A DNA stretch of 64,000 bases from a virus. Position numbers and translations under genes: made by a program. Shown piece after piece: positions 4,364 through 63,478 of this stretch. Location: IMG/VR virus record IMGVR_UViG_3300021426_000094, positions 1-64,000 of that record. One strand, given 5' to 3'. Within the stretch, counting starts at the first letter, position 1, and every line of letters starts with the position of its first letter. The notes under the pieces are model-generated. The model made no database searches, was not told where the DNA came from, and saw only the letters and a list, made by a program, of their open reading frames with translations.

Positions 4364-6028
4364 TTAGTCAAAGATATTTCCATATCTCTTACTGGTTTCA
4401 GCACTCTTTCCTTCAGGAACTCTGAAGAAAGAGAATGTATGCTGATTAGTATCTTTTGAAACATGCTCTTTCTTACTATTATTCTTAATATAAGAGAGCA
4501 GAAGAGCATCGCATTTAGCCTGAATCTCATCAGCAGAGAATTCAGTGACCTTTTCCTTAATCTGTGCAAACTCAGCAGAATCAGAAATCAGTTTCCATTC
4601 GTCAGAATTAATAATCTCTTCTTTACGGGAATCTTCAGCGGCTTTCTGATACTTAGCCAGTTCTTCAGATACAGCAGAATACTTAGAGCGAATATTTTCA
4701 ATCTCGGCCTCTTCAGTGTCTGTCACATAAATTGCATGCACAGGAACTCTGTCACCCTTGAGAGAGAACACGCCAGCACGCTCACTATAAGCTTGACGAT
4801 AAGCAGAACCAGCCCATACATCAACCATTACAAGTTCTTTGTCATAAACAAGAACACTGTAATAAGCATTATCAGATTCAGAGTAAGTATCATTTACCAG
4901 TGTACCAAGCGCATAAATCTTATCATTCAGAGACACAGCAAACTCTTTGCCATTAACACTGTAAGTAATAGAATTCTCGACCTTCTTAACGGGTTCATCA
5001 TCCTGAACAGCTGGAGTCTCTTCTTGCAGCTCAGTCTCAGATTCCTCAACTTCAGGCTCGGTGTCTTCCTCTTCAGCTTCAGGCTCGTTGTCAGCTTCAG
5101 CCTCACCACCTTCAGCAGAATCAGAATCAGCTTCATCTTCAAAATTCGATTCAGGAGCAGGATCGGCCTCAGCGCTACCAAACATCTCTTCGAATTTAGC
5201 TTTCAGCTCTTCATCTGTCAGATTCTCATGCTCAAATGTGACATCTTCAGCAGTTACATTGTACTGTTCTAAAAGTTGCTCAAATAAGCCCATTTCATCT
5301 TTTCCTCCTTTCATAGAATTTTGATCTATCTCAAATGTGGCTTTATCCACATTGAAATTTAATAAAGATATGTTAGCACCTTCCATAGCTGGCTCAACTA
5401 CAGAGCCATCTTCATAATAACCAAGAATTGTGATTCCCTTAAATACAAAATCATCAATATTTAATATCTTTTCCTTGGCATCATATGAAAAATCATAGAC
5501 ATCAATTTCAACAGACACTGGGCACTTCCCTTCGGCGTCCATTAAAATGTCAGGTGCCTTTGTATAACCCTCATAAAGATAAGCATCAGTTTCAATATAT
5601 TCCTTATCATTATCAGCGTCATAAACTAATTCAGGCTTTGCATCGGCAGGAACATGACCAACAGGAATCTCGTCATATACGACTTCTCCATTATCACCTT
5701 CATGCATTGCATGCCAACCAAATACATTCTTTTCTTCTCCATCGATTTCCAACTGGTGAATGTACGCTAAAATAGGTCGATTCTTAATACTCTTGAGATT
5801 CTTCTTCATAGAATTATAAGTGATCTGACTTCTATTTCTATTCTTACCAACATGGGCAGCTTGCAGATGCGCCCTTACAAGACCATCTTTAGACGTGTCA
5901 TTGCTAAAAGACAGCGATCCCTCAAGACCGACTGCTACAAATGAGGCACCAAACTCATCTTTAGAAAATTTAAGATTGGTTCCCTTATTTACTAAATAAT
6001 CATAAAAAGCATCTATACTAATAAACAT
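4364..6028 (-). CDS. Putative prohead protease / scaffold fusion protein (highly acidic middle, coiled-coil C-terminus)
   Basis: The start was reset to MFISID (AAGGGG RBS). The track's earlier ATG overlaps the upstream gene. A ~70-aa stretch of D/E/A/S/P (EADPAPESNFEDEADSDSAEGGEAEADNEPEAEEEDTEPEVEESETE) is followed by helical K/E-rich segments typical of scaffolds. It sits between the portal and capsid genes. Confidence 0.4.
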   Translation of the reverse strand: MFISIDAFYDYLVNKGTNLKFSKDEFGASFVAVGLEGSLSFSNDTSKDGLVRAHLQAAHVGKNRNRSQITYNSMKKNLKSIKNRPILAYIHQLEIDGEEKNVFGWHAMHEGDNGEVVYDEIPVGHVPADAKPELVYDADNDKEYIETDAYLYEGYTKAPDILMDAEGKCPVSVEIDVYDFSYDAKEKILNIDDFVFKGITILGYYEDGSVVEPAMEGANISLLNFNVDKATFEIDQNSMKGGKDEMGLFEQLLEQYNVTAEDVTFEHENLTDEELKAKFEEMFGSAEADPAPESNFEDEADSDSAEGGEAEADNEPEAEEEDTEPEVEESETELQEETPAVQDDEPVKKVENSITYSVNGKEFAVSLNDKIYALGTLVNDTYSESDNAYYSVLVYDKELVMVDVWAGSAYRQAYSERAGVFSLKGDRVPVHAIYVTDTEEAEIENIRSKYSAVSEELAKYQKAAEDSRKEEIINSDEWKLISDSAEFAQIKEKVTEFSADEIQAKCDALLLSYIKNNSKKEHVSKDTNQHTFSFFRVPEGKSAETSKRYGNIFD

Positions 6029-6243: not shown

Positions 6244-7836
6244 TTATTCGTTTGATCTGTCTCTTTTTTCTCTTGAAATTTCCCCGTCATTGCTCAAATC
6301 TGAGTCGTCAGACTCTGGTCTACCAACCTCACCATCACTATTACCAGAGGACGTATGACTAGATGCAAGAGGACTATTAAACTTTTCAGACAGACCAAGA
6401 ATATTTTCTTCAAGATAATTAGTAGCTAATGACTCATATTCACTAATGCCATTGAGCGCATTAAGTGCAAGTTTTACAGGAAGACCATAAGTACCATTCT
6501 CCAGTAATTCTTTCCTAAAGTCCTCTTTTGTATAAGCACTAATAGGGAAGAACACTACTTTACAAGGTGTACTCAGATTATAAGTTGCATATCTATTAAC
6601 CCATCCCTGAGTCTGTCCAAGTAAAGAACTGATTGCCAATTCTGTATCAACCTTCATTGCCAGTTTCAGACCAGTTGTACCTGTAATAGATATACTATTC
6701 AGTACTTGTCCACCCATACCAGAATTAAGTACATTTTCTGTAGCTTTAGTAACTTTATTGCTATTAGTCGTAGCATCATTATCACTAAATCCAATGGTAT
6801 TTAATTTTCCGGGCACAATAGCAGCAGAAGTATAATCAGGTAATGCCTCTTCACACATTCTATTAAAGTATTGAATAATAATCTCAGGATCAACTTTCCA
6901 GTCGTCTATATTTTTACTGCCAGAGATAGTTTCCATCTCTAACCAGATTAACTTATAAATATCCTGTTCATCTGCAATAGCTTGAAAATCTTTAACATCT
7001 TCCAGATTAATTAATTCTGCAAATAAACCAGAATAATATGGGACAATAACTCTCCAGTCTTCAGTATTTAATTTTAAACATACAGTATATTCTTCTGGAA
7101 ATATCTGCCATCTAAAATCATCACCACCAGATTCATACTGACGATACATACTTTCAAAAGGTTCACCCCAATACTCTAATAAATAATTATAAGTTCCTGT
7201 AAAATATGACATGTCCATAGCAAAGGCGAAATCACCACTTGCAAATCTACCCGCAATCCTACAATAATCGGGATCAAGTGGAAGAATAAATAAGCCATTA
7301 TCGTCATAATATGCGCAACCATAAAATACATCCTGAAGAAAACAGATAAGATATATCATTAAGAATTTCTGTTGAAGATCGAGACTATCAATAAATTTAG
7401 CTGTTTCAGCATATTCTTTTAATATCTTCTTATCATTTTGTGTATTAGCAGTTACATCATAATTTGGTATAATGCGCCTTGCATCCAATTCAAACATAGT
7501 CGCATTATAATTAATAAGTTTCTTATACATCTGTGACCTATAATAAAGATACCAAGAAAGATTCCTGAGGTTCTTTTCATTATTACTGATATTCTTTAAA
7601 TAAGTAAGAAGTTTTTCCTTATTAAACGTAGGAATTGCTTTTCTGGTATTCTTAGTCACATCTGTAATTTGTTTAAATGAATTCTCAGCAGCTTCGAAAT
7701 TCTTTATCTTATTATAATTATCATTATAAAAAGACTGTAATTCTGAAACTGTCTTTACTCCATGCTGAGTATTAATTGACTCTCGTGTCTGGGCTGTGCT
7801 CGACACATTGCGATTTTTTCTTCTTTTACGTGCCAT
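6244..7836 (-). CDS. Portal protein candidate
   Basis: About 530 aa. The start was reset to MARKRRKNRN (GAGGAGG RBS just after the terminase stop). It lies directly downstream of the large terminase. Confidence 0.5.
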   Translation of the reverse strand: MARKRRKNRNVSSTAQTRESINTQHGVKTVSELQSFYNDNYNKIKNFEAAENSFKQITDVTKNTRKAIPTFNKEKLLTYLKNISNNEKNLRNLSWYLYYRSQMYKKLINYNATMFELDARRIIPNYDVTANTQNDKKILKEYAETAKFIDSLDLQQKFLMIYLICFLQDVFYGCAYYDDNGLFILPLDPDYCRIAGRFASGDFAFAMDMSYFTGTYNYLLEYWGEPFESMYRQYESGGDDFRWQIFPEEYTVCLKLNTEDWRVIVPYYSGLFAELINLEDVKDFQAIADEQDIYKLIWLEMETISGSKNIDDWKVDPEIIIQYFNRMCEEALPDYTSAAIVPGKLNTIGFSDNDATTNSNKVTKATENVLNSGMGGQVLNSISITGTTGLKLAMKVDTELAISSLLGQTQGWVNRYATYNLSTPCKVVFFPISAYTKEDFRKELLENGTYGLPVKLALNALNGISEYESLATNYLEENILGLSEKFNSPLASSHTSSGNSDGEVGRPESDDSDLSNDGEISREKRDRSNE

Positions 7837-7846
7837 ATGCACCTCC

Positions 7847-9625
7847 TCAAATAACTCTATTATTTCTTGTACGTCCTCTTCTAATAGGAAGACTATATAC
7901 AAGCTGTTCCACATCAGATATATTAGGTTTTAATTGCAATTCTAATTGTTTCATGCACCAGTAATTATATGACAGAGAAGAGTAACGGTCTTTTCGATTG
8001 CCTTTAGTTTCATATACTTTAAGCTTGCCATCTTTATAGTAGCCTTTTAATTTTACCAACTCAAAAATGGCGGCAGATGTTTCTGCATAAGACTTTAATA
8101 GTTCACTCTTTTCATATACGGTTAATTTCTTATACCCCTTAAACTCTTTAGAAAGATATATTTCCGCATCATTCTCAGATACTAAGAAATCAACATTGCC
8201 ATTCTGGATTGCGTTACGGAGTAAGAGGCAATAAACACTGTTGGAATCAGCCGTTGCTTTTACGGAATAAATAACTTTTTTGGCATCTCTAACTTTACAA
8301 CGTTGTGCCATTTCATCATTATTACAACAATTTAAAGCTTTATATGTTTCACCTGTTTCTGGATCATATTGGTCTTTTACTAAGAAATCAAAAGTAGAAA
8401 GACCCACTCCGTTGGTATCGATGACCATGTATGTACAATGGTATTGATAAAAATACCTCATTACAATAATACCCAATTCATCAGACGTCAGTCCCTCAAA
8501 TGTTTGTCCAAACACAAAATGTGCTTTATATTTTGTATCTGTTGTTCTGATAGCATCATTAATATATATAGCAGAAGCATCATTCCGTTTCTTTTTAGTT
8601 GAAGCCATAAGTGCTATATCAACTGATAATATGCGCTCTCCATTTCTAGGAGCTGATGGTACAGGATTATCTTTAGAGTAAAACTTCAAAGGTAGTAGTC
8701 CTTTTTTATTTACTCTAAGTCGGGTAGCTTCATCAAAACTAAATACACCACCTTCATTATCACCATACCAAAAACAATCATCTTCCATATGAAAAGCAAC
8801 TTCATCAAAATCGTCTTCTGACATACGGTCTTCAACTTCATCTCTCATCAATAATCCTTCAAGAATAGATATCTGATAAGGAAGACCACAAACAAAATAT
8901 TTTCTTTTTGGATTAATAAAATTTTTAAAATACGCTAAAAACTTATCATAACCCCAGCTTGATTTTAACCACGCAGAAGACATGTATATTTCTTTATTAC
9001 GTTCTTGAAGATGGGAATATTCTGGTTTACTAAGGTAGCCCGGTGATCGAGGGGCTTTCAAAAATTCACGAATAACACTATCAATAATACGTTTATCTGT
9101 TTTAACGTATTCGTCTACTATAATAATATTACAGTGAGCGGAACGTGCATTGTCTGTACTAGTAGTTATTTTAATCCAACTATCATTTTTAAAATATACT
9201 GAACCGTCATTCTGCCCTATACTGATTTTAGCTATTTCATTTCTTAAAAAGCTGCTTTGGGGACAAAATTCATCTCTAATTTTTAGCAACGATTCAGCGG
9301 CCTGTTTTAGTACAGGTGCTGTTATTATAACTTTAGAACCGGGATATAAAATACAATATATTGTTGCCACGAGTGCAACTAACATAGTTTTGCCTTGACC
9401 CCTTGCGGCTAAGTAGAGGACGTAATTATTATGCATCATTGCCCATAATAATAATTCCTGAAACCATCGCAACCGAATAGTTTTAAATTGTAACACATCC
9501 TTTACAAATCTTTGTGGATTTGCTCGATAATACCCAGCACGCCAAGCAATGGTTTTCATTAATTTGTTATGCTTTTCTTCTTTAACTTCATCTATACTTC
9601 TAGTTTCTTCTATAAATTCAGCCAT
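7847..9625 (-). CDS. terL: Terminase large subunit
   Basis: 592 aa. A Walker A-like motif (LAARGQGKT) and a Walker B motif (NIIIVDEY) are present. A C-terminal nuclease-sized domain follows, and the gene lies upstream of the portal. Confidence 0.8.
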   Translation of the reverse strand: MAEFIEETRSIDEVKEEKHNKLMKTIAWRAGYYRANPQRFVKDVLQFKTIRLRWFQELLLWAMMHNNYVLYLAARGQGKTMLVALVATIYCILYPGSKVIITAPVLKQAAESLLKIRDEFCPQSSFLRNEIAKISIGQNDGSVYFKNDSWIKITTSTDNARSAHCNIIIVDEYVKTDKRIIDSVIREFLKAPRSPGYLSKPEYSHLQERNKEIYMSSAWLKSSWGYDKFLAYFKNFINPKRKYFVCGLPYQISILEGLLMRDEVEDRMSEDDFDEVAFHMEDDCFWYGDNEGGVFSFDEATRLRVNKKGLLPLKFYSKDNPVPSAPRNGERILSVDIALMASTKKKRNDASAIYINDAIRTTDTKYKAHFVFGQTFEGLTSDELGIIVMRYFYQYHCTYMVIDTNGVGLSTFDFLVKDQYDPETGETYKALNCCNNDEMAQRCKVRDAKKVIYSVKATADSNSVYCLLLRNAIQNGNVDFLVSENDAEIYLSKEFKGYKKLTVYEKSELLKSYAETSAAIFELVKLKGYYKDGKLKVYETKGNRKDRYSSLSYNYWCMKQLELQLKPNISDVEQLVYSLPIRRGRTRNNRVI

Positions 9626-10722: not shown

Positions 10723-10774
10723 GCAATCACCTTCCTTTTTTATCTGTTTGATTCATTAAAAGTTACATACGAAA

Positions 10775-10851
10775 TAACGGGAGGGGGATTTGAACCCCCG
10801 AATCTCTAGCCCATGAAGCTAGTGAGTTAAACCGAACTTCTCCATCCCGCG
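10775..10851 (-). tRNA. tRNA-Met(CAT) type. It could be elongator Met, initiator-like, or a lysidine Ile2-type tRNA.
   Basis: The minus-strand read gives a cloverleaf with a GGGGG/TTCAAAT/CCCCC T-arm. The anticodon stem is CTAGC/GCTAG with loop TTCATGG, so the anticodon is CAT. The acceptor stem is GCGGGA/TCCCGT with a C1-U72 mismatch. No CCA is encoded. Confidence 0.75.
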
Positions 10852-10861
10852 ATATAATAAA

Positions 10862-14219: not shown

Positions 14220-14684
14220 TCAAGCCGTTCTGCTAATACTCAAACTACCATCAACCACATTAATTAATGGAGTAGGAGTTGTTGCCGAATCATTAACAGT
14301 GCCATTTACATATTCTACTGAAACCGTAAAACAACATCCACGAGGAACATCTACAGTAGCCCTTGAAGTTACATTCCCATATTCATCAACGGCAGAAGGG
14401 GTAAAAATACTTCTACTGCCATCACGACTTTCCCCTGAGACCACGATAGCGGTCGCTATAGGAGTAATTGCTCCACCTTCAGGAATTGCTATATTACCTG
14501 TAAATTCAACATTATAGCGTGCAAAACATGCGGTAGGATTATTAACGATACCACGCAGAACAAAAATCCCCGTTCCACTTTGGTGAAAAATGTAACCACG
14601 ATTACAGGGGATAGAATCCACAAAAGGAATTGCAGTATTAAGCGCTACGCTTTCAACTGCATCTCTGGTTAAATATTCTGCCAT
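14220..14684 (-). CDS. Hypothetical protein
   Basis: 154-aa ORF. Confidence 0.35.
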   Translation of the reverse strand: MAEYLTRDAVESVALNTAIPFVDSIPCNRGYIFHQSGTGIFVLRGIVNNPTACFARYNVEFTGNIAIPEGGAITPIATAIVVSGESRDGSRSIFTPSAVDEYGNVTSRATVDVPRGCCFTVSVEYVNGTVNDSATTPTPLINVVDGSLSISRTA

Positions 14685-14697
14685 AATTACACCTCCA

Positions 14698-15504
14698 TCA
14701 AGCTACGCCACAACCACATCCACATGTGCCAAAGTTTTGTCCGCAACAATTCGGGTTAGGAACTGTGTATGCAGGAACTGGAGTAGGAGCGAGGTATCTC
14801 TCAAGAGCTGCGGTCTGTGCTTCATTATTAGCCAGAATAGCAGCCGTTTGAGCACCCTGAGACGCAGCCAGATTAGCCATTGTAAGTTGCCTTTCAAGGT
14901 CTGCGATTCTCTCATTCTTAGCATCAATCTTATCCTGACACATAGTATCAAGAATACGCTGAATACCAGCATTCTGATTTTGAAGAATATCACGAATTCC
15001 ATCATTCAGCGCTGTTCTATCTGCACAGTTTTCAGACTGAATAACATTCTGAAGGTTAGCAGAAGCTAATCTATTCTCACAGCAGCAATCTGCAAATTGA
15101 GACGCAAGCTGATTAATGCCCTGAGTTACAGCCGTCTGAGCTGCAAAAGCTTGGTTCATATTAGCCATCTGACGAGCAGTAGCCGCAGTTTCAGCATTAG
15201 CAAAACCCGCACTAACGCCAGCAAATCCATTACAAAGTTGAGTAGAAAGACCAGAAATACCAGACTGAATTCCAGAAACACCAGACATTACAGCAGACTG
15301 ATCAAAACCACGCTGCACCTCTGCGCCCATGGAACCGCCACCATTTCCGTAGCCTCCCCAGCCACCGTTGCCAAATGCAAACAGGAAAAGCAGAATAATC
15401 CACCAGCCTGATTCTCCACCCCAGCCCATGCCAGAGCCGCCATTCCCGTTCATTGGGGTTACAGGCATAACCATATCGTTACCATTTCCATCTGTTAAAC
15501 TCAT
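14698..15504 (-). CDS. Gly-rich membrane protein with a C-terminal Cys cluster
   Basis: AGGAGG RBS. A GNGGSGMGWGG segment is followed by a TM helix (WWIILLFLFAF) and more GGWGGYGNGGG. The protein ends NPNCCGQNFGTCGCGCGVA. Confidence 0.45.
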   Translation of the reverse strand: MSLTDGNGNDMVMPVTPMNGNGGSGMGWGGESGWWIILLFLFAFGNGGWGGYGNGGGSMGAEVQRGFDQSAVMSGVSGIQSGISGLSTQLCNGFAGVSAGFANAETAATARQMANMNQAFAAQTAVTQGINQLASQFADCCCENRLASANLQNVIQSENCADRTALNDGIRDILQNQNAGIQRILDTMCQDKIDAKNERIADLERQLTMANLAASQGAQTAAILANNEAQTAALERYLAPTPVPAYTVPNPNCCGQNFGTCGCGCGVA

Positions 15505-27544: not shown

Positions 27545-28507
27545 TTAATCACCTTCCTCTGTTGTAAGATTACGTGTGTCTACAATAGGAGTGGAGCTAC
27601 CCTGAATCTGAGGAACAGTACCATTCCACTTTTCAATTTTCTCTTTCTCAATAAGTTCTGGAGTCAACGAACCAGCAACTTTCTTGTTGGCCTCTGCCTC
27701 AGCTTCAGCAGCGATTCTCTTAGCTTCTGCATCACCCTCAGCTTTAATCTTTGCCTTTTCTGCATTAATCTTAGCTGTCTCTTTATCTTTCTCAGCATTA
27801 ATAAGCGCAACTTCCTTTTCCTTTTCAGCATCTACAGAAGCTGTCTGCTTATTAATCTTGGCGACTTCCAAATCCTGCTGAGCCTGAATCTTCTTCTGAA
27901 TTGCCTTATCTGTTTCCTCGTCTACATTGACATCAATCAGTGACGCACTCTCGATGATAATCCCATAAGGCTCAAATTTCTCTTTCAGATATTCAGTAAG
28001 AGCAATATTAACCGCACCACGCTGTTCACCGATGATCTCTGTCATATAATATCTGGGCGTGACTTCCTTAGTCCAAGACATTACATTTGGTCTAATAAAT
28101 GTACGGAGTACTTCCTTACCAGAACGACCCTTGAACCTTGTAAAGATTTCAGCGACCCGTTCAGGATCATACCTGTAAGTAAATGTCTCATCAACCCTCA
28201 GACCTTTACCATCCTTCGAAGGAGCCTCAAAGCTATCATCGCCCTCAGAATCCCCATCGTCTCCAGCAGTAAGATAAGACTGCTCAATACCAATAGAATA
28301 CAGTGTAATCTGTTTAGTAGGTGAAACAACATGCCATCCCTGAGACAAAACCTCGTCATCAATACCACCATTCATCTTATACACGACACCTACATAGCCC
28401 GCAGGAATCCTCTCTGTACATTTGAAACAACAAATAACCACAAGGGCAATTACAATAGCCGAAAAAACGCCACCAACAATACCTTTCATCTCTTTACTCC
28501 TTTTCAT
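27545..28507 (-). CDS. SPFH/band-7 (prohibitin/HflK/C-like) membrane protein
   Basis: An N-terminal TM helix is followed by a PHB-like core and a coiled coil with KINAEK repeats. Confidence 0.7.
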   Translation of the reverse strand: MKRSKEMKGIVGGVFSAIVIALVVICCFKCTERIPAGYVGVVYKMNGGIDDEVLSQGWHVVSPTKQITLYSIGIEQSYLTAGDDGDSEGDDSFEAPSKDGKGLRVDETFTYRYDPERVAEIFTRFKGRSGKEVLRTFIRPNVMSWTKEVTPRYYMTEIIGEQRGAVNIALTEYLKEKFEPYGIIIESASLIDVNVDEETDKAIQKKIQAQQDLEVAKINKQTASVDAEKEKEVALINAEKDKETAKINAEKAKIKAEGDAEAKRIAAEAEAEANKKVAGSLTPELIEKEKIEKWNGTVPQIQGSSTPIVDTRNLTTEEGD

Positions 28508-28634
28508 TCAAACTTCTCTTAATATCATTCCACATATCTAAAAGCACATCTCCAATGATTGGGAAGAAAATATTTAGCGCTCCCCAAAGAAAGATGGCAA
28601 ATAGAATCACTAAAAATATAAATACAGGATTCAT
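28494..28634 (-). CDS. Small hydrophobic membrane peptide (46 aa) translationally coupled to the SPFH gene
   Basis: Not in the ORF track because it is below 60 aa. Its ATG overlaps the upstream stop (ATGA). It ends inside the SPFH gene's RBS. Confidence 0.4.
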   Translation of the reverse strand: MNPVFIFLVILFAIFLWGALNIFFPIIGDVLLDMWNDIKRSLNEKE

Positions 28635-30429: not shown

Positions 30430-31521
30430 TTAACTTGCATTTGCCCATTGCCATCCAAAACCACCGCATTTTCTCCTTATACCATCACATACCTTCCTAA
30501 TATTTCTTTGTGCGGCTTCAGCACTTTGTCCGGTTTCTTCTGCTACATTGCGCCCAGCATCTGCTATAGAATTAAATGTGCAAATATAACTACCGTTTAT
30601 ATCATATTTATTAACAGGACGCAACATACCAGAATAGTCATCTTTTGATAACGTTGGTGGTTTTTTATCTTTAGTCCACAGAAAGCCACAAGCACTTTGA
30701 ACTTCACCTCTTAAACATTGATATATACGATGTCTTGCGCCTGTATCATTAGTTTCTGTACCTAAATACAGTCTATGCACGGCTTCTCTAACATCATCAT
30801 AAACTCCAATTAATTGTTTGGTATGTACATCCCAACAATACACAATTCCATCATATGGCATCATTTGTTTAATACTAGCCTTATACTTTTTTCGTATTAT
30901 ATTATTTATCCCTTTTATTTCTGATTCAGGGATATCATTTCCATGTGTATCTTTATGATACCGAAATATATATTTACTAGCTCTTAATTGCCGACCTTTA
31001 ACTACTTTTAATATATTAGTTTTTTTAACGCCAGTTATATCTTGTGCTTCATTATATGTCATTGCCGTACCAAGGTATTTACCATTTAAATCAAAGTAAT
31101 CTATTGGAGTTCTTTTAGCTAAATTATGTTTATTATTTCTTAATTTTTCTTTATGATCTTCTGATAGAGGAACACCAACATGTGAATAACCACCATCATC
31201 TCGATTATATCCATAAGAAGGATGTTGCCATCTGTTTAAATTAGTTTTATATTTTTTAATATAATAGCGTTCTCGTTTACAGGCTTGTTCAAAAGAAAGT
31301 TTTTCTTCCAAAATAATATGTTTAAAATTATCCCAACCATATTTTTTTATTGCCCTATAAAATACAGTTTGAGTATGATATCCCTCTCCATTTGCCCATC
31401 TAACTTCAGGCTTTAATGACGTTATACCAATATACCTCTTATCATTGGGGGCTACATGCATATAAACACAATACAACACATCCAAATAATTTTTCCATGT
31501 CTTTTTGGTATCTTCTAACAT
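30430..31521 (-). CDS. GIY-YIG homing endonuclease with C-terminal DNA-binding repeats
   Basis: The N-terminus (YCVYMHV...KRYIGIT) matches the GIY-(x10)-YIG motif. The C-terminal half repeats the FDLNGKYLGTAMTYNEAQDITG-type motif. Confidence 0.7.
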   Translation of the reverse strand: MLEDTKKTWKNYLDVLYCVYMHVAPNDKRYIGITSLKPEVRWANGEGYHTQTVFYRAIKKYGWDNFKHIILEEKLSFEQACKRERYYIKKYKTNLNRWQHPSYGYNRDDGGYSHVGVPLSEDHKEKLRNNKHNLAKRTPIDYFDLNGKYLGTAMTYNEAQDITGVKKTNILKVVKGRQLRASKYIFRYHKDTHGNDIPESEIKGINNIIRKKYKASIKQMMPYDGIVYCWDVHTKQLIGVYDDVREAVHRLYLGTETNDTGARHRIYQCLRGEVQSACGFLWTKDKKPPTLSKDDYSGMLRPVNKYDINGSYICTFNSIADAGRNVAEETGQSAEAAQRNIRKVCDGIRRKCGGFGWQWANAS

Positions 31522-32744: not shown

Positions 32745-32958
32745 TCTCCATAATCTTAGCAGCTACATTAAGTCTCAGCCCCACAAAGGGTGGAAGAGTA
32801 CTACCAGAACTATTCTGTGAAAACGTCATAGGATTTGCACGCCATCTTTTAATCATCTCTTCTTTACCCAATTCAATACGGTACTGTTTATTAAATAGCT
32901 TCTTAAAAAAATACTTAATCTTATTAATCAATCTCTTCCTATATACTTCTACTTTCAT
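32713..32958 (-). CDS. Small basic protein
   Basis: 81 aa. Overlaps its neighbours and the start is uncertain. Confidence 0.25.
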   Translation of the reverse strand: MKVEVYRKRLINKIKYFFKKLFNKQYRIELGKEEMIKRWRANPMTFSQNSSGSTLPPFVGLRLNVAAKIMEIGDWRNRYGR

Positions 32959-33457
32959 TTCTTCCCTTCCACCATTTCTTATAATATTCCAATGTCAGGA
33001 ACATTATCAATGTGTTTATACTTACAAATTTCTTATTAAGTTTGTTCTCAATCCAAGGATGAAGCGGTTCAACCAAATCCTGCTCTTCAAAAAATCCAAT
33101 AATTTCTTTCCCTAGTAGCCATGCCAACATAATCTCTTGGCATGTACCTACAGATGTTTTTGCTTTGTTTAGATTCACCACAAAATAATTGCAATTAATA
33201 ATTCCACAAATATCATATTCATGAGCCAACTGCTGAACTTCATCACTTTCGTCCTCAGCATTAAAAACAGTTGGATCAAAGAATTGATAATGACCCATAA
33301 AATGTTTCTCTAGAACTTCTCGCCATTCTGTCTGTTCTTTTTGTGACAATCCTGTCATAGCACCAGACAAAAAAATAGTAGGGCAATCTGCTTCTACCTT
33401 ATATTTCTGAACTAAAACTTCTAATCTATCATTCCTCATTCGCTTCCTCTCTCTCAA
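32939..33457 (-). CDS. Nucleoside 2-deoxyribosyltransferase-like / dNMP N-hydrolase-like protein
   Basis: The N-terminus (IFLSGAMTG...EW) and a later conserved Glu (GTCQEIMLAW) resemble the NDT/Rcl fold. Length is 172 aa. Confidence 0.45.
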   Translation of the reverse strand: MRERKRMRNDRLEVLVQKYKVEADCPTIFLSGAMTGLSQKEQTEWREVLEKHFMGHYQFFDPTVFNAEDESDEVQQLAHEYDICGIINCNYFVVNLNKAKTSVGTCQEIMLAWLLGKEIIGFFEEQDLVEPLHPWIENKLNKKFVSINTLIMFLTLEYYKKWWKGRNESRSI

Positions 33458-42788: not shown

Positions 42789-43472
42789 TTACATCCAATA
42801 ATTAATAGCCTCTTGCTGTTCCATAAAAAAGTGAATGCCGGGCGCACATTCATGCCAGCGATTTTCATCAAAGTCTGGAACCGTCACAATTTTTCGTGGT
42901 TCGTAAGTAAATCCATAATCATAACTCGAAAATGCTTTACCTACATAATTACCATCTAATGTACGAATATCCAGAACTTGTGCTTTACTACATCTACATT
43001 TACGAGAAAAACCGCTACTACGTCTTGCTTCTGTCGGTATCAATAACTTAATAATACAAGGTCGCATTTCATATGTGCCATCAATGGTGCCATCAATGTG
43101 TAACTGAGGATACAATCCCATTTTCCATCCTATAAAAGCACCTTTTGTTGGGCATACAGTAGGTACATAAGGTTCTGATCCAATAAAATGACAGTTGTTT
43201 ACATATGCATCAAAAATTCCTATATAAGTACAATTACGAAAAATGCAATTTCTAAAAATTAAAGATGTATTATTTTGATTAAAAACGCAATACTCAAAAA
43301 TACAATATCTAAAAATAATGGAACAATTTCTATCAAGAAGAGCGCATATATCTGTTGTAAATGAGCCAAAATTGAAACCTATAAAATGGCATTTATCATA
43401 TAACGTATCAATTGAAGTATTCTTGAATGCGTGTGAATAAGAAGGAAATATCGTTTTGTTTTTAATAATCAT
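42789..43472 (-). CDS. Pentapeptide-repeat-like (CxFxxCxF) protein, cassette copy 1
   Basis: Repeats such as NCSIIFRYCIFEYCVFNQNNTSLIFRNCIFRNCTY are present. A conserved GIHFFMEQQEAINYW C-terminus is shared with its paralog 44400..45002. Confidence 0.5.
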   Translation of the reverse strand: MIIKNKTIFPSYSHAFKNTSIDTLYDKCHFIGFNFGSFTTDICALLDRNCSIIFRYCIFEYCVFNQNNTSLIFRNCIFRNCTYIGIFDAYVNNCHFIGSEPYVPTVCPTKGAFIGWKMGLYPQLHIDGTIDGTYEMRPCIIKLLIPTEARRSSGFSRKCRCSKAQVLDIRTLDGNYVGKAFSSYDYGFTYEPRKIVTVPDFDENRWHECAPGIHFFMEQQEAINYWM

Positions 43473-43962: not shown

Positions 43963-44403
43963 TTAATTTAGATGCTCCTTCATAAAGTAATCAATGTCTG
44001 CTTGCTCTCGTGCTAGTCCTCGCTGAAGATTGGCTATTAGCTCTGTCTGACGTTCAAGCTGCTCCTGCTGAATCTGACGTTTCTCAATATTTTTATGAAA
44101 ATGTCGATACCGCATTACATCAATAAACGTCTTGAAGTCTACAGCGCTATCACTATATCTTATGTCATAATCATTAAGTATAAAATCTTCTGGCATTACA
44201 TGATATAAAGCAATGAACTGGCGGTAGGTGATTTTCGGAGTGGTGGAGCAGACTATATTCCACCAACTTGTATAAAACCATAATAGCACTAGATCAATGA
44301 CCCAAATTATAATCATCATTAAAAGTGCAAACCCATTACCCGTACAAAGGGTAAGAACTGCGGGTGCTATAAAAAAGAATACGAATATAATTATAGCTAT
44401 CAT
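43963..44403 (-). CDS. Membrane protein, cassette copy 2
   Basis: The start was reset to MIAIIIF (AAGGAG RBS). It is a paralog of 42328..42777 (YRQFIALYHVMPEDF versus FKEFYSLYSIMPENF). Confidence 0.45.
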   Translation of the reverse strand: MIAIIIFVFFFIAPAVLTLCTGNGFALLMMIIIWVIDLVLLWFYTSWWNIVCSTTPKITYRQFIALYHVMPEDFILNDYDIRYSDSAVDFKTFIDVMRYRHFHKNIEKRQIQQEQLERQTELIANLQRGLAREQADIDYFMKEHLN

Positions 44404-45002
44404 AGATTCTCCTTGTAATAATTCACTGCTTCTTGCCGCTCCATAAAGAAATGAATACCATGTGAACATGCGTAGCTCCTGTCATCATCAAATTGATCAG
44501 GATACACCCATTCGTTAATTTTATAATAAAAATCAGGCGACCACCGAGAACAAGTAACCTCATTCTCTGCTGGTGTCCCATCCATATTTTGAATCTCCAA
44601 TACAAATGCCTTATCACATCGGCATTTGCGCTCTCCATAAGGCGAAACTCGCCTTGCATCAGCTGGGATCAGCAGCTTAATTAACTGCCCATTACAATCT
44701 ACTTTCCAACCGATAAATGCACCCTCAACTGGACAGACATAGGGAATATAAGGTTGATTACCAAGAAAGTCACAGTCTATTACATGGGCGTTAAATGTAT
44801 TCTTAAATGTGCAATTTATAAAAATACAGTTCATAAAAAATATAGGAAACGATTCATCGAATGTACAATATTCAAATACACAAGATGAAAAAGTAAATGG
44901 CAGATACCATTTCCTAAAATGAACTCCAATAAAATGACAATGCGTATAAGTATCAGGTATATAAGGATAAGTACCCGGAAAATATTTCTTATCTGTTATC
45001 AT
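44400..45002 (-). CDS. Pentapeptide-repeat-like protein, cassette copy 2
   Basis: A paralog of 42789..43472. It shares LIKLLIP(T/A)(E/D)ARR...RKCRC...GIHFFME(Q/R)QEA(I/V)NY. Confidence 0.5.
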   Translation of the reverse strand: MITDKKYFPGTYPYIPDTYTHCHFIGVHFRKWYLPFTFSSCVFEYCTFDESFPIFFMNCIFINCTFKNTFNAHVIDCDFLGNQPYIPYVCPVEGAFIGWKVDCNGQLIKLLIPADARRVSPYGERKCRCDKAFVLEIQNMDGTPAENEVTCSRWSPDFYYKINEWVYPDQFDDDRSYACSHGIHFFMERQEAVNYYKENL

Positions 45003-45017
45003 TTAATTTATGCCCCC

Positions 45018-45254
45018 TTATTCCCAACTAATACAATATTCTGGCATATTATATTGATTACCTGTAACAATATCATAGCCCAGTTCTTCCAATTTTTTTC
45101 GAACTGCTGGTCGCAACACCCCATCCCCATAATATTTATAATATCCCTGAGCCGAATCTTTATCGATGTTTTCCATTATTTCATTAAATTGGGACTGTTC
45201 ATATTTAGATATAGCTGCTTTTGCACGCTGACGTGCCTGTTCTGCTGTTATCAT
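45018..45254 (-). CDS. LGY...W family, member 5
   Basis: 78 aa. Ends EELGYDIVTGNQYNMPEYCISWE. Confidence 0.45.
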   Translation of the reverse strand: MITAEQARQRAKAAISKYEQSQFNEIMENIDKDSAQGYYKYYGDGVLRPAVRKKLEELGYDIVTGNQYNMPEYCISWE

Positions 45255-45269
45255 TTATTTTTACCCCTC

Positions 45270-45524
45270 CTACCATATAATATATGTTACATAACCACTG
45301 TCTGTCCAAGATGACGAATGTGTGGTTATTGTATAACCAAGGTCTTCAAATGTACTTTTTACAAAAGGAGAAAGTTCATCATAATATTCACACGATGTTT
45401 CACCTTTAACAACAGCTTCTCCAATTTTATTATTAACGGTTTCGATCTCGTCCTTATAACGATATATCATTGAATATTCTCGTGCTTTTTCTGCGCTGTA
45501 CAATTCGTTCATACTTTCTCCCAA
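45270..45524 (-). CDS. LGY...W family, member 6
   Basis: 84 aa. Ends EDLGYTITTHSSSWTDSGYVTYIIW. Confidence 0.45.
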   Translation of the reverse strand: MGESMNELYSAEKAREYSMIYRYKDEIETVNNKIGEAVVKGETSCEYYDELSPFVKSTFEDLGYTITTHSSSWTDSGYVTYIIW

Positions 45525-45739
45525 TTAATATATGTAATACAACCACTGTGCAAACTAATAATTCCTACATTATAACCCATGTCTATTAATATCTGTTCAG
45601 TGGCTTCGCTGATCTCTTCTTCGATTAGACAACATGTCGTGTGCTTTTCTGCTGCAGTCCTGATTTTGTCTTCAATATATTTTAATTCTTCTGGATCAAC
45701 ACCTTGTGCGATTTTATATGCGTCTATTGCTGATAGCAT
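45509..45739 (-). CDS. LGY...W family, member 7
   Basis: 76 aa. Ends IDMGYNVGIISLHSGCITYINWEKV. Confidence 0.45.
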   Translation of the reverse strand: MLSAIDAYKIAQGVDPEELKYIEDKIRTAAEKHTTCCLIEEEISEATEQILIDMGYNVGIISLHSGCITYINWEKV

Positions 45740-45854
45740 TTTATTTACCCCCCCCCTATCATCTTATTTACCATCGAGTACAGAATTCGTTTGCTAAACA
45801 AATAATAATTAAATAACGATGCTGATAGTATGGTAGCGTAAAATGCGCCCACTG

Positions 45855-46820
45855 TCAAGTACTTTTAATATAAGTATCTGCACACAGATTTATGAGTGGT
45901 GACTTAATCGGCTTACTCGTTGCCAGTGCCCAGCTATTAGCCCATGCCACCATCATTTGGTTCAATGATACCCCGGCCTCTTCAAGCTTGCGGGTATCCC
46001 GCTCAATCTGCCGCTCCATTCCCTCTTTTGTAAATACTATTTTGATGCAGTCAAATATTTGAAGGTCTGGGTCTGCCGACAGATGATGCAGCCGATAAAG
46101 CTGTGCCGCACACTCTTTATAGAAGCGGTCGTATAGATCAGACCTAAATACCAATTGTCCCAGATTATCCAACCCCAGTCGATCAAGTTCATTTCGCCGC
46201 ACCCCCATTATAATGTCGGCCTCATCATCAGTCGCAATTCGTGTAGTCCCGAACTCTTTAATAAGAAAACAATCAGAATATAAAATAAAAGACTGCTGTT
46301 GAAGACGGACTAGCGCACGCCTGAATATATTATTTAATTGCGAGTACGACTGACGGAAGAATGTCTGTATATTATATTGAATAACATCTTCAGGCAGTTT
46401 CCCAAATGGATAAAGTGGTGTCAGATCGACTGAAGCTGGAAATTGAGTGGTCTTATGAGAAAGTGACAGGTATTCAGGGTTGACCATATTAAGCTGCTCC
46501 CACCATTTCTTACGTCCCAGAACGGCTGTATTATTTTCCTGTTGAAGAAGATAATTTAGGAGCAATATTTTAATCAACTTATCATATTTAGTGCTGCGCT
46601 CATCTGGAAGAGGATGAGAATATATTTCAGTTATATAATAGAGGCAGTCCTTGGGATCATAGACAAAGGACGCAAACTGGGACAGACGTCTGTTAAATGC
46701 TGTTCTGGAGTTACCGCCTAATTTTGGCTGATCAAATACTTTATAAATTTCAGTAGAAGAGTAGATAGTGTCAGGGATTAATTTTTGGACAGTTTCTTGT
46801 GTAATGTTATAATCTTTCAT
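45855..46820 (-). CDS. First gene of the leftward unit. Hypothetical 321-aa protein, regulator candidate by position.
   Basis: The start was reset to MKDYNITQE (AAAGGAG RBS). It is adjacent to the divergent control region. Confidence 0.45.
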   Translation of the reverse strand: MKDYNITQETVQKLIPDTIYSSTEIYKVFDQPKLGGNSRTAFNRRLSQFASFVYDPKDCLYYITEIYSHPLPDERSTKYDKLIKILLLNYLLQQENNTAVLGRKKWWEQLNMVNPEYLSLSHKTTQFPASVDLTPLYPFGKLPEDVIQYNIQTFFRQSYSQLNNIFRRALVRLQQQSFILYSDCFLIKEFGTTRIATDDEADIIMGVRRNELDRLGLDNLGQLVFRSDLYDRFYKECAAQLYRLHHLSADPDLQIFDCIKIVFTKEGMERQIERDTRKLEEAGVSLNQMMVAWANSWALATSKPIKSPLINLCADTYIKST

Positions 46821-46932
46821 ATTTTTATTACTCCTTTCGTTTGTATTGTACAAAATAAGGTAAAGGGCGTGAATCACCTTATTTTAATTAGTGTTTTTAT
46901 ATGGACACTCAAAAAGTCCAATGTTTTCAGTA

Positions 46933-46994
46933 GGGGGTGTACAAAATTTGAATATAGTAAATACTCTTACTATATTCATTTTTCGTACACCCCC
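46933..46994. promoter_or_regulatory. Large imperfect palindrome/hairpin (28-bp arms) followed by a GGGTTTTTT run
   Basis: GGGGGTGTACAAAATTTGAATATAGTAA-ATACTC-TTACTATATTCATTTTTCGTACACCCCC. Candidate operator, origin element or plus-oriented terminator in the divergent intergenic region. Confidence 0.4.
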
Positions 46995-47170
46995 CTCCGT
47001 AAAATAAGGGTTTTTTGATGGTCGGATTGTACTACAATTTTAAGGCTAATAAATATAAGGGGAATTCCTATATGGAAGGTCTCCACTCCCACAATGATAG
47101 TATAACAGGTATGTGTCAAGGCGTCAATAGATAATTAAATATATGGGGAAAATGATTGGAATGGGGGAAA

Positions 47171-47415
47171 TGTGGATAAGTGAATGGGTATCAGGGAATT
47201 GGGTAAGAAAATACTGGGGAAAATGATGTGGATAAAATGAGGATAAAGATATGCGTGTAAATTATTTATTGAGGTATGGTTTATGGGAGAGAAAATGGGG
47301 TAAAGGGTAATATGCATATAAATTATTTAATGGAGAGATGGGGAAAATAAGAAATGAGAAGAAAGGAGGGTAGGTAAAATGGAGGGAGGAGTATAAAAAT
47401 AGTGTGTGTGGATAA
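47171..47415. promoter_or_regulatory. Three perfect DnaA boxes (TTATCCACA, read as TGTGGATAA on plus) in a C-depleted, G/A/T-only, iteron-like stretch. Candidate replication origin.
   Basis: TGTGGATAA occurs at 47171-47179, 47227-47235 and 47407-47415. Repeated ATGGGGAAAATGA and ATGC(G/A)T(G/A)TAAATTATTTA(T/A)TG motifs lie in between. Almost no C is present on the plus strand for about 300 bp. Confidence 0.45.
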
Positions 47416-47589
47416 AGCACGTGTCCCTGCCAGGGCTTCAGATCAACCTGGAATCGGTTCGAACCACCCCGCCATTTTTCACATGCCTATATATACTGTA
47501 AATCATAGTTTATGCTATAGTAGTAGTGTGATATCTGGCTTCCGGATATCCGCCCTATACACATTCACAATTAAGCCATTCATTAAGCG

Positions 47590-47680
47590 GTTCCCGAATG
47601 GGAACAGCCTAATATTCGGATTTAGTCCCGAATGGGACTATCTATAATCCGAATGGCGGAATATCGTTTTTTGAATGGCT
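47590..47680 (+). promoter_or_regulatory. Candidate rightward early promoter (TATAAT at 47643-47648) with four (C/T)GAATGG operator-like repeats
   Basis: TTCCCGAATGGGAA, GTCCCGAATGGGAC, CCGAATGGCGG and TTGAATGGCT flank a perfect -10 hexamer. The -35 is weak (TTTAGT). Confidence 0.35.
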
Positions 47681-47754
47681 TAAAAGCTGAACCGTTTTCT
47701 TTGTATCCGGTTCAGCAGGCGAAAATTCATTTTCATGAGAGAGGAGAAAACACC

Positions 47755-48516
47755 ATGAAAAAATTCGAAACCTACGCTATCACGACTCCCACATTCGAAA
47801 AAGCTGAAGACGGCCGGATTGATTTTAACATCAATGAGCCGACTAACTCCCGTGACTACGCAAAATTGGCTTGTGTTACAAATCAGGCCGATTTTGCAAA
47901 GGATGTTCAGCGTTACGTGGATATGGCCTATTCCAACAAGTTCAGTTGGATGGCCGAAAAGTGCATTGTATCCGCAAACAAAGGGAATGTTGTCGCCGGT
48001 GATAACGCCATCGTTTATAATGAGATGGCGAATTATTTCGAACCGGCAAACAAAAAGCAGGAAATGACATTAGCACATGTAATTGCTTTTACCATCTGCA
48101 AAGAATGCCGGATTTACTACTATTGCGATGGGGAAAAGTACAAAAAGTGTGATGTTACATTCGGGGCCGATGGCATTCAGATGTTTGAGGCATTTCAGGC
48201 CGTTTCCGACAAGGCCGTTTCCGACAAGGCCGTTTCCGAATTGAAAGAACGTCTTACAACGTGGTTCCAGTCCATCATTGCAAGCGACCCCAATTGCAAA
48301 GAATGGGATTGCAAAGGTATCACGGCAAAAATCACATTAGAGCTTATTCATGAGGCTGGCCGGATTTTTGAGCGGTATAATCACAAAGGTATCAGCGACA
48401 ATAGCAAGCGGACATCCGTTTCCGAATGGACAAATCAGGCATTGCTTAAGTGCCTGAAAAAGGTTCTTAAGTTCGAACCGCATGTTGAATATGAACATGT
48501 GCATGTTATTCAGTAA
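47755..48516 (+). CDS. Hypothetical protein, first rightward gene, GC-rich
   Basis: The start was reset to MKKFETY (GAGAGGAG RBS). Contains an in-frame AVSDK tandem repeat. Confidence 0.5.
   Translation: MKKFETYAITTPTFEKAEDGRIDFNINEPTNSRDYAKLACVTNQADFAKDVQRYVDMAYSNKFSWMAEKCIVSANKGNVVAGDNAIVYNEMANYFEPANKKQEMTLAHVIAFTICKECRIYYYCDGEKYKKCDVTFGADGIQMFEAFQAVSDKAVSDKAVSELKERLTTWFQSIIASDPNCKEWDCKGITAKITLELIHEAGRIFERYNHKGISDNSKRTSVSEWTNQALLKCLKKVLKFEPHVEYEHVHVIQ
48199..48240 (+). repeat. 15-bp tandem repeat (GCCGTTTCCGACAAG x2.8) inside the CDS, in frame
   Basis: Direct reading of the sequence. It encodes AVSDKAVSDKAVSE. Confidence 0.6.
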
Positions 48517-62833: not shown

Positions 62834-63478
62834 ATGAAAGTATTAGAATTGTTCGCTGGTACACAGTCAATCGGAAAAGAATTCAAGGCAAGAGGACATG
62901 AAGTGTTCTCCGTAGAATGGGATAAAGATTTTGAAAACATCAGTTTATATGCAGATATCAGTAAACTAACTGCAACAGAAATCCTTGAAAAGTTTGGTCA
63001 TCCAGATGTGATTTGGGCGTCACCTGATTGTACAACATTCAGTGTGGCTGCTATCAGTAAACACAGAAAGCGCAATCCTGAAAACGGAAACCTTGAACCG
63101 ATTTCAGATTATGCAAAATTCTGCGATGCCACTGATCAGCATGTGCTTGATTTGATAAGGGAATTGAATCCTACATTTTTCTTTATTGAGAATCCTAGAG
63201 GGGCAATGAGGAAAATGAAATGGATGCAGGACATCCCTCGATATACAATTACTTATTGTCAATATGGAGATAGTCGAATGAAACCCACCGACATCTGGAC
63301 TAATCATCCTGACCCGCAGTTTAAACCACCGTGTAAGAACGGAGATCCTTGTCATATGAGAGCACCAAGAGGTTCAAGAACAGGAACACAAGGGCTTAAA
63401 GGTGCAAAGGAAAGGGCAAGGATTCCTGAACAGTTCTGTAAACATATTGTTGATATTTGTGAAGCATACATTAATTAA
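62834..63478 (+). CDS. Short C5-cytosine methyltransferase-like protein (orphan, 214 aa)
   Basis: Motif I LELFAGTQS (FxGxG). Motif IV SPDCTTFS (PC catalytic Cys). Motif VI FFIENPRG (ENV-like). A C-terminal IPEQF motif X-like segment is present. No obvious large target-recognition domain. Confidence 0.6.
   Translation: MKVLELFAGTQSIGKEFKARGHEVFSVEWDKDFENISLYADISKLTATEILEKFGHPDVIWASPDCTTFSVAAISKHRKRNPENGNLEPISDYAKFCDATDQHVLDLIRELNPTFFFIENPRGAMRKMKWMQDIPRYTITYCQYGDSRMKPTDIWTNHPDPQFKPPCKNGDPCHMRAPRGSRTGTQGLKGAKERARIPEQFCKHIVDICEAYIN

Follow-up and report, generated by a model that had tools for sequence, protein, structure and literature searches.

A cytosine-excluded spacer with co-oriented DnaA boxes between the divergent gene arms of a rumen-type phage: a candidate docking region for host DnaA

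Background

DnaA boxes are a known constituent of phage and plasmid origins and control regions. Here we describe the intergenic gap between two divergent gene arms of an uncultured phage (IMG/VR virus record IMGVR_UViG_3300021426_000094, positions 1 to 64,000, hereafter the window). An earlier note, made from the sequence alone, had read this gap as a DnaA-dependent or DnaA-titrating replication origin flanked by operator-like elements. The 934-bp gap is best explained as a central control region, the core of which is a docking array for host DnaA. What is new is that the boxes lie within a zone from which a single base is excluded by selection, next to a junction of fixed length and with no classical unwinding element.

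Among the closest described arrangements is that of Ceduovirus (c2) phages. There, the origin sits in the non-coding DNA that separates the divergent gene blocks, has an early promoter on either side and exists in interchangeable types; replication is transcription-mediated and requires a non-coding transcript (PMC7150918). The present gap is likewise a non-coding region between divergent blocks, bounded by predicted early promoters, lacking an open reading frame (ORF) or ribosome-binding site (RBS) and occurring in exchangeable types. It differs in having no sequence similarity to c2, and its second same-direction promoter is predicted only. Theta origins that combine iterons with DnaA boxes, such as P1 oriR and those of pSC101, F and RK2, resemble the locus in their co-oriented consensus boxes beside repeated motifs in non-coding DNA. 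Unlike them, the window has two iteron copies 61 bp apart, no AT-rich region and no adjacent recognisable rep gene, both flanking proteins being without a family, PDB or usable fold assignment.

In bacterial oriC, the basal unwinding system is defined by DnaA boxes, DnaA-trios (NAN, consensus 3'-GAT-5') and an AT-rich region (PMC8287927). The locus shares the high-affinity boxes, and its C-free strand carries 5'-TGTGGATAA-3', whereas trios and the AT-rich element are absent. In Bacillus subtilis, the strand with 5'-TGTGGATAA-3' is the trio strand. Dense intergenic clusters of DnaA boxes in B. subtilis (sda, ywlC, yydA) regulate neighbouring genes and are not origins (PMC2533591). They are similar to the present locus in packing consensus and one-mismatch boxes into an intergenic region, a density also found here (4 in 292 bp), and differ in being chromosomal rather than viral and in having no strand-specific base exclusion described for them.

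Bacteriophage T5 has a conserved DnaA-box array in an untranslated region away from its mapped origins (10.1101/866236). Both T5 and the present phage are large and keep conserved boxes in a large untranslated region, rich in repeats and palindromes, beside early genes. In both, about five helical turns separate the box groups, T5 having a 52-bp spacer and the present phage 56 bp from start to start. In T5, however, box pairs 3 bp apart lie within the inverted repeats IRC and IRD in both orientations, whereas here there is one orientation and one pair 2 bp apart (47227/47238). The T5 region is further distinguished by its position in the terminal repeat and its Gram-negative host, and its function is hypothetical too.

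Methods

Seventeen related loci (designated by L numbers) were gathered via the 321-amino-acid protein encoded by the first leftward gene, and 14 of these had enough upstream sequence for comparison of the spacer. The substitution spectrum was compiled from six close locus pairs, which yielded 238 substitutions in the spacer. In order to find similar arrays elsewhere, IMG/VR was scanned for two copies of ATGTGGATAA 46-66 bp apart, for which the chance expectation was roughly estimated at a handful.

Results and discussion

A conserved spacer from which cytosine is excluded

The gap between ATG 46820 and ATG 47755 is the sole large non-coding region in 64 kb and is located exactly at the divergence of the two transcription arms (Table 1). 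The leftward gene starts at ATG 46820 and not at 46877. The core of the gap is a spacer in which the previously noticed depletion of C was confirmed at 4 C in 292 nt, with 41% A, 33% G and 25% T on the plus strand. With a score of 240 (49 for the next C-poor segment), it leads all single-base-exclusion segments of the window by a wide margin. A counterpart of 196-402 bp with 1-3% C is found at the same place in 14 of 14 loci, although the sequence is otherwise hard to align. Strict exclusion of C is confined to this small rumen group and one distant locus, L227, and perhaps L159; no DNA match to the cassette was found among GenBank phages.

Among the spacer substitutions, 144 were exchanges of A and G and 11 of C and T. 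Changes involving C made up 8% of the total in the spacer versus 36% in the adjacent leader, where exchanges of C and T accounted for 59 of 230. The spacer drifts freely among A, G and T while C on the plus strand is not tolerated, so the exclusion is selected. Indels between close relatives measure 1, 2, 5, 10, 11 and 14 nt, and the spacer is non-coding because these are mostly not multiples of three; they also bear out the earlier suspicion that the ORF at 47135-47317 is spurious. A rule of base content that is independent of sequence is hard to square with duplex-binding proteins and suggests that the spacer acts in single-stranded form, as RNA or as unwound DNA. As RNA, the spacer folds no better than shuffled sequences (z-score +0.48).

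Exact copies of TGTGGATAA occur at 47171, 47227 and 47407 in a single orientation, with none reversed, and the rest of the 64 kb contains a single further exact box, at 5343 and facing the other way. Three boxes in the C-poor stretch compare with 0.028 expected, and none of 2000 dinucleotide shuffles reached three, in agreement with the earlier claim of a cluster beyond chance. Counting boxes with at most one mismatch, there are 4 in 292 bp against 1.66 per kb window-wide, an 8-fold density. An oriC-type basal unwinding system has 1-2 boxes with at most two mismatches; the spacer has three exact and one 8/9 match. Binding of DnaA at these boxes is predicted with good confidence from their identity with the consensus.

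An unbiased k-mer count over the 14 spacers returned TGTGGATAA as the top shared 9-mer (11 of 14 loci, 23 copies) and ATGTGGATAA as the top 10-mer. The number, orientation and spacing of the boxes are kept in relatives while the surrounding sequence diverges, so that the loss of conservation which the earlier note had named as refuting its proposal was not seen. Boxes 1 and 2 are 56 bp apart in most relatives that have both (9 loci), and box 2 is followed, after 11-13 or 22 bp, by a third, weaker box. The right end of the spacer is marked in all loci by GTGTGGATGAAGC, which hardly varies. The terminal motif with box 3 recurs in the distant cassette L227; the terminal 15-mer is confined to known relatives in IMG/VR, the 53 other matches having no C-poor flank. 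Toward the other edge, the start of box 1 lies 41-45, 54 or 65 bp from the -35 element of the leftward promoter (P_L) in relatives, which puts the box centre near -83, -93 or -104. These classes are steps of about one helical turn and keep box 1 on the same helix face relative to P_L.

The few cytosines retained in the spacers include one in GATCA(G/T) about 15 bp after box 1 in 10 relatives (TATCAG here, 47190-47198) and others directly after some boxes (TGTGGATAAC). In sequence, the conserved GATCA(G/T) resembles TGGGATCAG, the I2 site of E. coli oriC, which is specific for ATP-DnaA; it could alternatively be a methylation site.

The repeats, the palindrome (core 46926-46991) and the GAATGG motifs reported in the earlier note are all present as sequence features. 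Iteron-type repeats ATATGCGTGTAAATTATTTATTG / ATATGCATATAAATTATTTAATG lie at 47249 and 47310, and 7 loci have such pairs in the same orientation with a spacing of 59-62 bp. The second copy adjoins the rightward promoter (P_R) in L002, L003 and L010. A further repeat, TGGGGAAAATGAT, has copies at 47144 and 47215 and a third, 85% identical, at 47339. The 934-bp gap contains no tandem array, and no 10-11-bp periodicity (phased A-tracts, curvature) was consistent among the spacers. G-runs are present, although canonical four-run short-loop motifs for G-quadruplexes, judged by eye only, are not conserved.

To the right of the spacer, 13 sequences of the GC-rich junction align over about 80 nt almost without gaps. 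The junction is the most stable duplex of the gap, and no RNA structure at this edge of the spacer proved to be conserved among the 13 aligned sequences. A short ORF from the ATG in the terminal motif was considered and is not credible, with 8-35 codons among the loci. DNA identity of 96% with L001 spans 44000-47246 and stops abruptly within the spacer, and this break is a mosaic junction of left and right modules.

Table 1. Positions of the elements of the gap and of landmark genes in the window
Feature	Position	Strand	Details
Portal gene	6244-7914		Leftward arm
Large terminase gene	7847-9625		Leftward arm
First leftward gene	45855..46820	-	321 amino acids, ATG 46820; ORF and RBS read from sequence
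Small variable hairpin	46852..46885	-	Inverted repeat just upstream of RBS, leftward leader
Long hairpin	46904..47023 (core 46926-46991)	-	57-nt arms; 5' leader RNA of leftward gene
Predicted leftward promoter P_L	47095..47127	-	-35 TTGACG 47127-47122, 17-bp spacer, TGt-TATACT, -10 47104-47099
Cytosine-excluded spacer	47126..47417	+	74% purine
DnaA box 1	47171..47179	-	Exact; TTATCCACA on minus strand
DnaA boxes 2 and 2'	47227..47246	-	Exact 47227-47235; 8/9 TGAGGATAA 47238-47246; 11 bp start-to-start
Two iterons ATGYRTRTAAATTATTTAWTG, 21-23 bp	47249-47271, 47310-47332	+	
Terminal motif GTGTGGAT(A/G)AAGC with DnaA box 3 (47407-47415)	47406..47418	+	Right edge of C-free spacer
GC-rich junction	47419..47473		Fixed length, variable sequence, local palindromes; ends GGTTnnAA...CCCC
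Predicted rightward promoter P_R	47513..47521	+	Extended -10 TGc-TATAGT, no good -35
5'-terminal stem-loop of rightward transcript	47530..47548	+	Compensatory double changes in 4/10 pairs (4 loci)
Structured leader core	47571..47683	+	Long-range stem 47571-47589 / 47665-47683
Pre-RBS hairpin	47687..47716	+	Conserved loop GTTTCT(A/T)TGTAT; 8/9 pairs with compensatory double changes (5 loci)
First rightward gene	47755..48516	+	253 amino acids, ATG 47755

A proposed replication start assisted by DnaA and activated by transcription

It is hypothesized that the gap serves as a replication start, assisted by DnaA and activated by transcription, and at the same time tunes the leftward promoter; to this reading we assign a probability of roughly 35%. 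P_L (47099-47127) would drive the leftward arm through a 270-nt leader with the long hairpin, and the extended -10 promoter P_R (47513-47521) would drive the rightward arm through a structured leader of 230 nt, the two predicted promoters enclosing the 292-bp spacer, C-free on the plus strand, with its four co-oriented boxes and two iterons. Host DnaA-ATP would bind the boxes. Divergent transcription, possibly together with a rightward C-free transcript from the symmetric -10 region of P_L, would supply negative supercoiling or an RNA-DNA hybrid, upon which the spacer would be opened or marked for helicase loading. Such a start would resemble the c2 origin in its placement and plasmid origins in its use of DnaA. 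Bound DnaA would probably also tune P_L. Strands free of C or of G would form no G-C hairpins after separation and would suit single-strand transactions.

A replication start is favoured because this is the sole large gap, the arms diverge in it, a minimum of cumulative G-C lies less than 1 kb away and the boxes are conserved; because the selected exclusion of C is a single-strand property; because the cassette recurs in L227 among unrelated neighbours; and because analogues exist in the Ceduovirus origins and in the box and iteron regions of phages AM1 and Arian, described below. It is doubtful, and at this stage speculative, that the C-free zone constitutes a new kind of functional element, in which one base is selected away on one strand and the strands or the transcript are free of G-C structure. 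Such a zone with DnaA boxes could take the place of an AT-rich unwinding element, and its possible roles are a hairpin-free pad for loading of DnaA or helicase, a persistent R-loop zone or a Rho-invisible RNA.

Several observations weigh against a replication start. The cumulative G-C minimum at 46274, less than 1 kb from the spacer, does provide the skew switch that the earlier note had sought, but it coincides with the switch in gene orientation and is inseparable from it. There is no AT-rich unwinding element, the nearest-neighbour stability of the spacer ranking at the 60-89th percentile of the window, and no extreme minimum of duplex stability beside the boxes. Runs of DnaA-trios 5' of every box were no longer in 12 loci than in shuffled flanks (P 0.06-1.0), whereas an unwinding system has at least three trios within 0-16 bp of a box. 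Iteron origins carry at least 3-5 regularly spaced copies of 17-22 bp, whereas here there are two copies only, 61 bp apart. Protein family searches found no replication, initiator or helicase-loader gene in the window. Phages of about 157 kb often carry their own replication proteins. The bacterial genome collection yielded no relatives of the 321-amino-acid protein, and so no clue to the host. Among the described systems, the T5 array lies away from origins, the B. subtilis clusters regulate genes, and the c2 origin has neither DnaA boxes nor base exclusion, its transcript having 24% G and 15% C; c2 was accordingly dropped as a compositional analogue, being neither C-free nor provided with boxes. 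Finally, box 1 is helically phased to P_L at distances that are, by their geometry, typical of upstream transcription factors, which pure transcriptional control explains at least as well. Of the DnaA-dependent origin proposed in the earlier note, the conserved boxes and the skew inflection therefore stand, while an origin is not established, the unwinding element and the trios being absent and no initiator gene being recognisable nearby.

The alternative to be taken most seriously, only slightly less probable in our estimate, is that DnaA gates early transcription only, in the manner of the clusters upstream of sda, ywlC and yydA in B. subtilis, the divergent early promoters being coupled to host DnaA-ATP and replication starting elsewhere. 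The boxes would then be activator or repressor sites for P_L, or orientation-specific roadblocks to rightward transcription. Their location between two promoters, the 41-45, 54 and 65 bp from box 1 to the -35 element on the same helix face, and the lack of an unwinding element or trios all agree with this, as does the number of boxes with at most one mismatch, which fits the density criterion for stable binding in B. subtilis (PMC2533591). The phasing, however, is based on three spacing classes only, among related loci, and neither promoter is nearer than 100 bp to boxes 2 and 3, the distances being 100-370 bp. Gating also fails to account for the exclusion of C, whatever the sequence, over 200-660 bp and for the fixed length of the junction in the cassette.

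It is less probable again that the spacer is chiefly an RNA element in which the DnaA boxes are secondary, as the selected exclusion of a base, a single-strand property, might suggest. In one version, a rightward, C-free and purine-rich RNA from the symmetric -10 region, unstructured, invisible to Rho and with free GGA and GGGG, would be a leader or a protein sponge. Purines make up 66-74% of the plus strand, which in this respect resembles the sense strands of the two arms, the symmetric -10 core TGnTAnnnTAnCA makes bidirectional firing plausible, and the hypothetical RNA is unstructured, as noted above. The rightward partner nevertheless has no -35 element, no conserved terminator or 3'-edge structure was found, and GGA is not above composition (about 15 seen against an estimate of about 13 expected), which also disposed of the idea of a CsrA sponge. 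In the other version, a leftward, G-free and C-rich RNA would be an ideal Rho loading site insulating the two arms; the minus-strand composition of 33% C and 1% G is that of a textbook Rho utilization (rut) site. Neither version has an Rfam family, and both leave it as a coincidence that the top repeated motif matches the DnaA box at 9 of 9 positions.

Lower still do we rate a DnaA sink or anchor in the style of the T5 injection stop, which would titrate or tether membrane-associated DnaA for host takeover or DNA positioning, the boxes acting on neither phage replication nor promoters. In T5-like phages, about 8 DnaA boxes are maintained off the origins, within a large untranslated region that adjoins the pre-early genes (10.1101/866236). 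The rightward arm of the present phage carries genes of early or anti-defence type (DUF932, ParB-like, C5-methylase), restriction-alleviation-like genes are found in L019, and perfect same-orientation arrays of 5-13 boxes adjoin such genes in many viral contigs. Three to four boxes per genome would nonetheless be a weak sink, the T5 model is itself hypothetical, the boxes here are direct repeats instead of pairs within inverted repeats, and the exclusion of C and the promoter phasing would go unexplained.

A chance cluster in odd composition, or the antisense of a leftward ORF at 47135-47317, can be dismissed: several loci do have minus-strand ORFs of 60-110 codons, which exist because a G-poor strand lacks TAG and TGA stops, but composition-matched shuffles never reach three boxes, 14 loci keep the feature, indels break the reading frame and the substitution spectrum reflects selection on base content, not codons.

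If DnaA does act here, a family of rumen Firmicutes phages of about 157 kb would link its replication start or early programme to the host initiator, giving it a direct read-out of the growth state of the host. Selected exclusion of one base over hundreds of bp is also a simple searchable feature, which could flag elements active as single strands (origins, R-loop zones, Rho-proof RNAs) in uncultured phages.

Predicted promoters and leader RNAs of the two arms

P_L scored 10/12 plus TG in the promoter scan, its transcript being predicted to start near 47092, and AGTATA-N17-NGTCAA with its 17-bp spacer is kept in 12 of 14 loci. Its -10 region TGATAGTATAACA (47095-47107) is symmetric and has a top-strand partner, TGa-TAGTAT, which could fire rightward without a -35 element. 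The resulting transcript would be C-free, purine-rich and unstructured, insensitive to Rho and prone to stable hybrids with the C-rich template. Of the two same-direction promoters that would then exist, the downstream one (P_R) is backed by covarying leader hairpins and the upstream one is the top-strand half of the symmetric -10, without a -35.

The leftward leader extends about 270 nt from P_L and folds with a z-score of -8.4 against shuffled sequences. In the long hairpin, 37 of 37 pairs are kept in 15 loci, one pair alternating between AU and GC (9 versus 6 loci), and four positions allow G-U pairs in the minus-strand RNA only. L019, at 65% identity, has a different sequence and still forms a long hairpin. 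This element is the palindrome that the earlier note had taken for an operator or promoter element. It lies 70-190 nt downstream of the predicted leftward transcript start and its loop varies in sequence and length, which together with the minus-strand-only G-U pairs led us to reject an operator; judged from its sequence, the palindrome is an RNA hairpin of the minus strand, in the leftward leader. A rightward intrinsic terminator was likewise rejected, no terminator being called. A role as an RNase III site or stability element is a reasonable guess. The small hairpin nearer the gene differs in sequence among relatives with self-complementarity kept, and is absent in L012 and L013. The leader also contains a conserved ATTGTACTACAAT dyad (47026-47038) and recurrent TGTACA motifs (46847, 46901, 46938, 46985), which may be protein-binding sites overlapping the RNA structure.

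On the right side, P_R is conserved as TGgTATGAT / TTATAAT in L008 and L015, relatives that share the module, and a covarying hairpin begins 2-4 nt after its predicted start, which here lies near 47527. The rightward leader of 230 nt is strongly structured (minimum-free-energy fold, z-score -6.97). Its core includes two 6-bp hairpins with GAAU loops, at 47590-47605 and 47624-47639. The motif (C/T)GAATGG, which occurs four times (47595, 47629, 47650 and 47672) around a TATAAT at 47643, had been read as an operator and promoter for the rightward genes. The GAATGG motifs instead correspond to the GAAU loops and arms of the leader hairpins and are specific to this phage, relatives having other short repeats at the same place, and the TATAAT is not conserved. 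In Rfam 15, the only match of the window at or above the gathering score was a tRNA-Met outside the gap; within the gap there were only chance hairpin matches to microRNA models, far below threshold. In L019 (6645-7420), L003 and L002, P_R is followed upstream of the gene by 700-800 nt of GC-rich non-coding sequence in otherwise AT-rich phages, with CCCGGTTGCCCGG-type repeats and long-range inverted repeats.

Similar arrays in other phages

The IMG/VR scan returned 77 viral contigs (loci L156-L231), many with 5-13 perfect boxes in one orientation, beside early-type genes such as ERF, DUF932, RNA ligase, SprT-like and RelA/SpoT. Examples are L180, L185, L177, L204, L169 and L226, and gut Microviridae match too. 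GenBank, too, contains unannotated arrays of a similar kind, namely those of Lactococcus 949-group phages, Butyrivibrio phages and gut Microviridae. Perfect DnaA boxes arrayed in one orientation are thus widespread in phage non-coding DNA and hardly described outside T5, the T5 analysis being the only publication on such phage arrays found in the literature.

The distant cassette copy in L227 (IMGVR_UViG_3300021255_001979, reverse strand, about 1180-1850) is flanked by unrelated genes. It comprises about 660 bp of C-poor sequence with three exact boxes, ends in GCGTGTGGATGTATCACGTCCCCC and has a strong leftward TTGACA-18-TATAAT promoter at its left edge.

In Lactococcus phage AM1 (L233, NC_049854, 22648-23411), about nine 30-bp iterons precede four perfect boxes that share one orientation and are spaced at about 21 bp. 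In Butyrivibrio phage Arian (L234, MN882551, about 14400-14950), six TTCCAAAATACAACAT iterons are flanked on either side by box clusters. Both regions are non-coding and unannotated, no paper on either was found, and by their origin-like layout they are candidate origins.

The phage and its genes

The window is part of a large siphophage genome of Firmicutes type. The leftward arm, from about 46.8 kb, carries the portal, large terminase, endolysin and exonuclease genes and many small genes, and the rightward arm, from 47.75 kb, carries small genes that encode, among others, DUF932, ParB-like and C5-methylase-like proteins. At 25-30% identity, the portal is a distant relative of those of Brevibacillus, SPbeta-like and Lactococcus 949-group phages. 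Uncultured rumen-type phages on contigs of 114-159 kb are the closest relatives.

The 321-amino-acid protein of the first leftward gene belongs to a tiny family (PHROG 36702, without assigned function), has no Pfam domain or PDB match, and gave an AlphaFold model with a predicted local distance difference test score of 55, unusable for fold assignment. The idea of a phage attachment site (attP) was pursued on two counts: Pfam and PHROG searches ruled out that this protein is an integrase, and ARAGORN found no tRNA or transfer-messenger RNA fragment at 47440-47475. The 253-amino-acid protein of the first rightward gene has no Pfam, PHROG or PDB match. In relatives, this gene and its leader are swapped as one cassette, with at least four unrelated protein families at this position, as would be expected of a specificity cassette. 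Inside the gene, at 48197-48239, a 15-bp unit is repeated perfectly in tandem (AGGCCGTTTCCGACA x 2.9) and encodes AVSDK three times; the repeat might represent iterons within an initiator gene, in the fashion of lambda O.

In a relative, the 10 kb to the right of the window yielded no replication genes, only a tyrosine recombinase (Phage_integrase family; L021:16884-17981, on the contig of L002, about 7 kb past the right end of the window), so the phage may be temperate or may resolve dimers. About 100 viral contigs carry close relatives (70-98% identity) of the C5-cytosine-methylase-like gene (62834-63478); many of these contigs measure 100-180 kb and come from gut and rumen samples. Elsewhere in the window are a tRNA-Met gene (10774-10852), a homing endonuclease gene of GIY-YIG/HNH type (30430-31521) and two DUF5758 paralogues (42789-43472 and 44400-45002). 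The leftward arm also contains runs without G on the plus strand, at 32842-32993 (about 150 nt) and 28470-28543 (74 nt), which are the strongest G-exclusion segments of the window.

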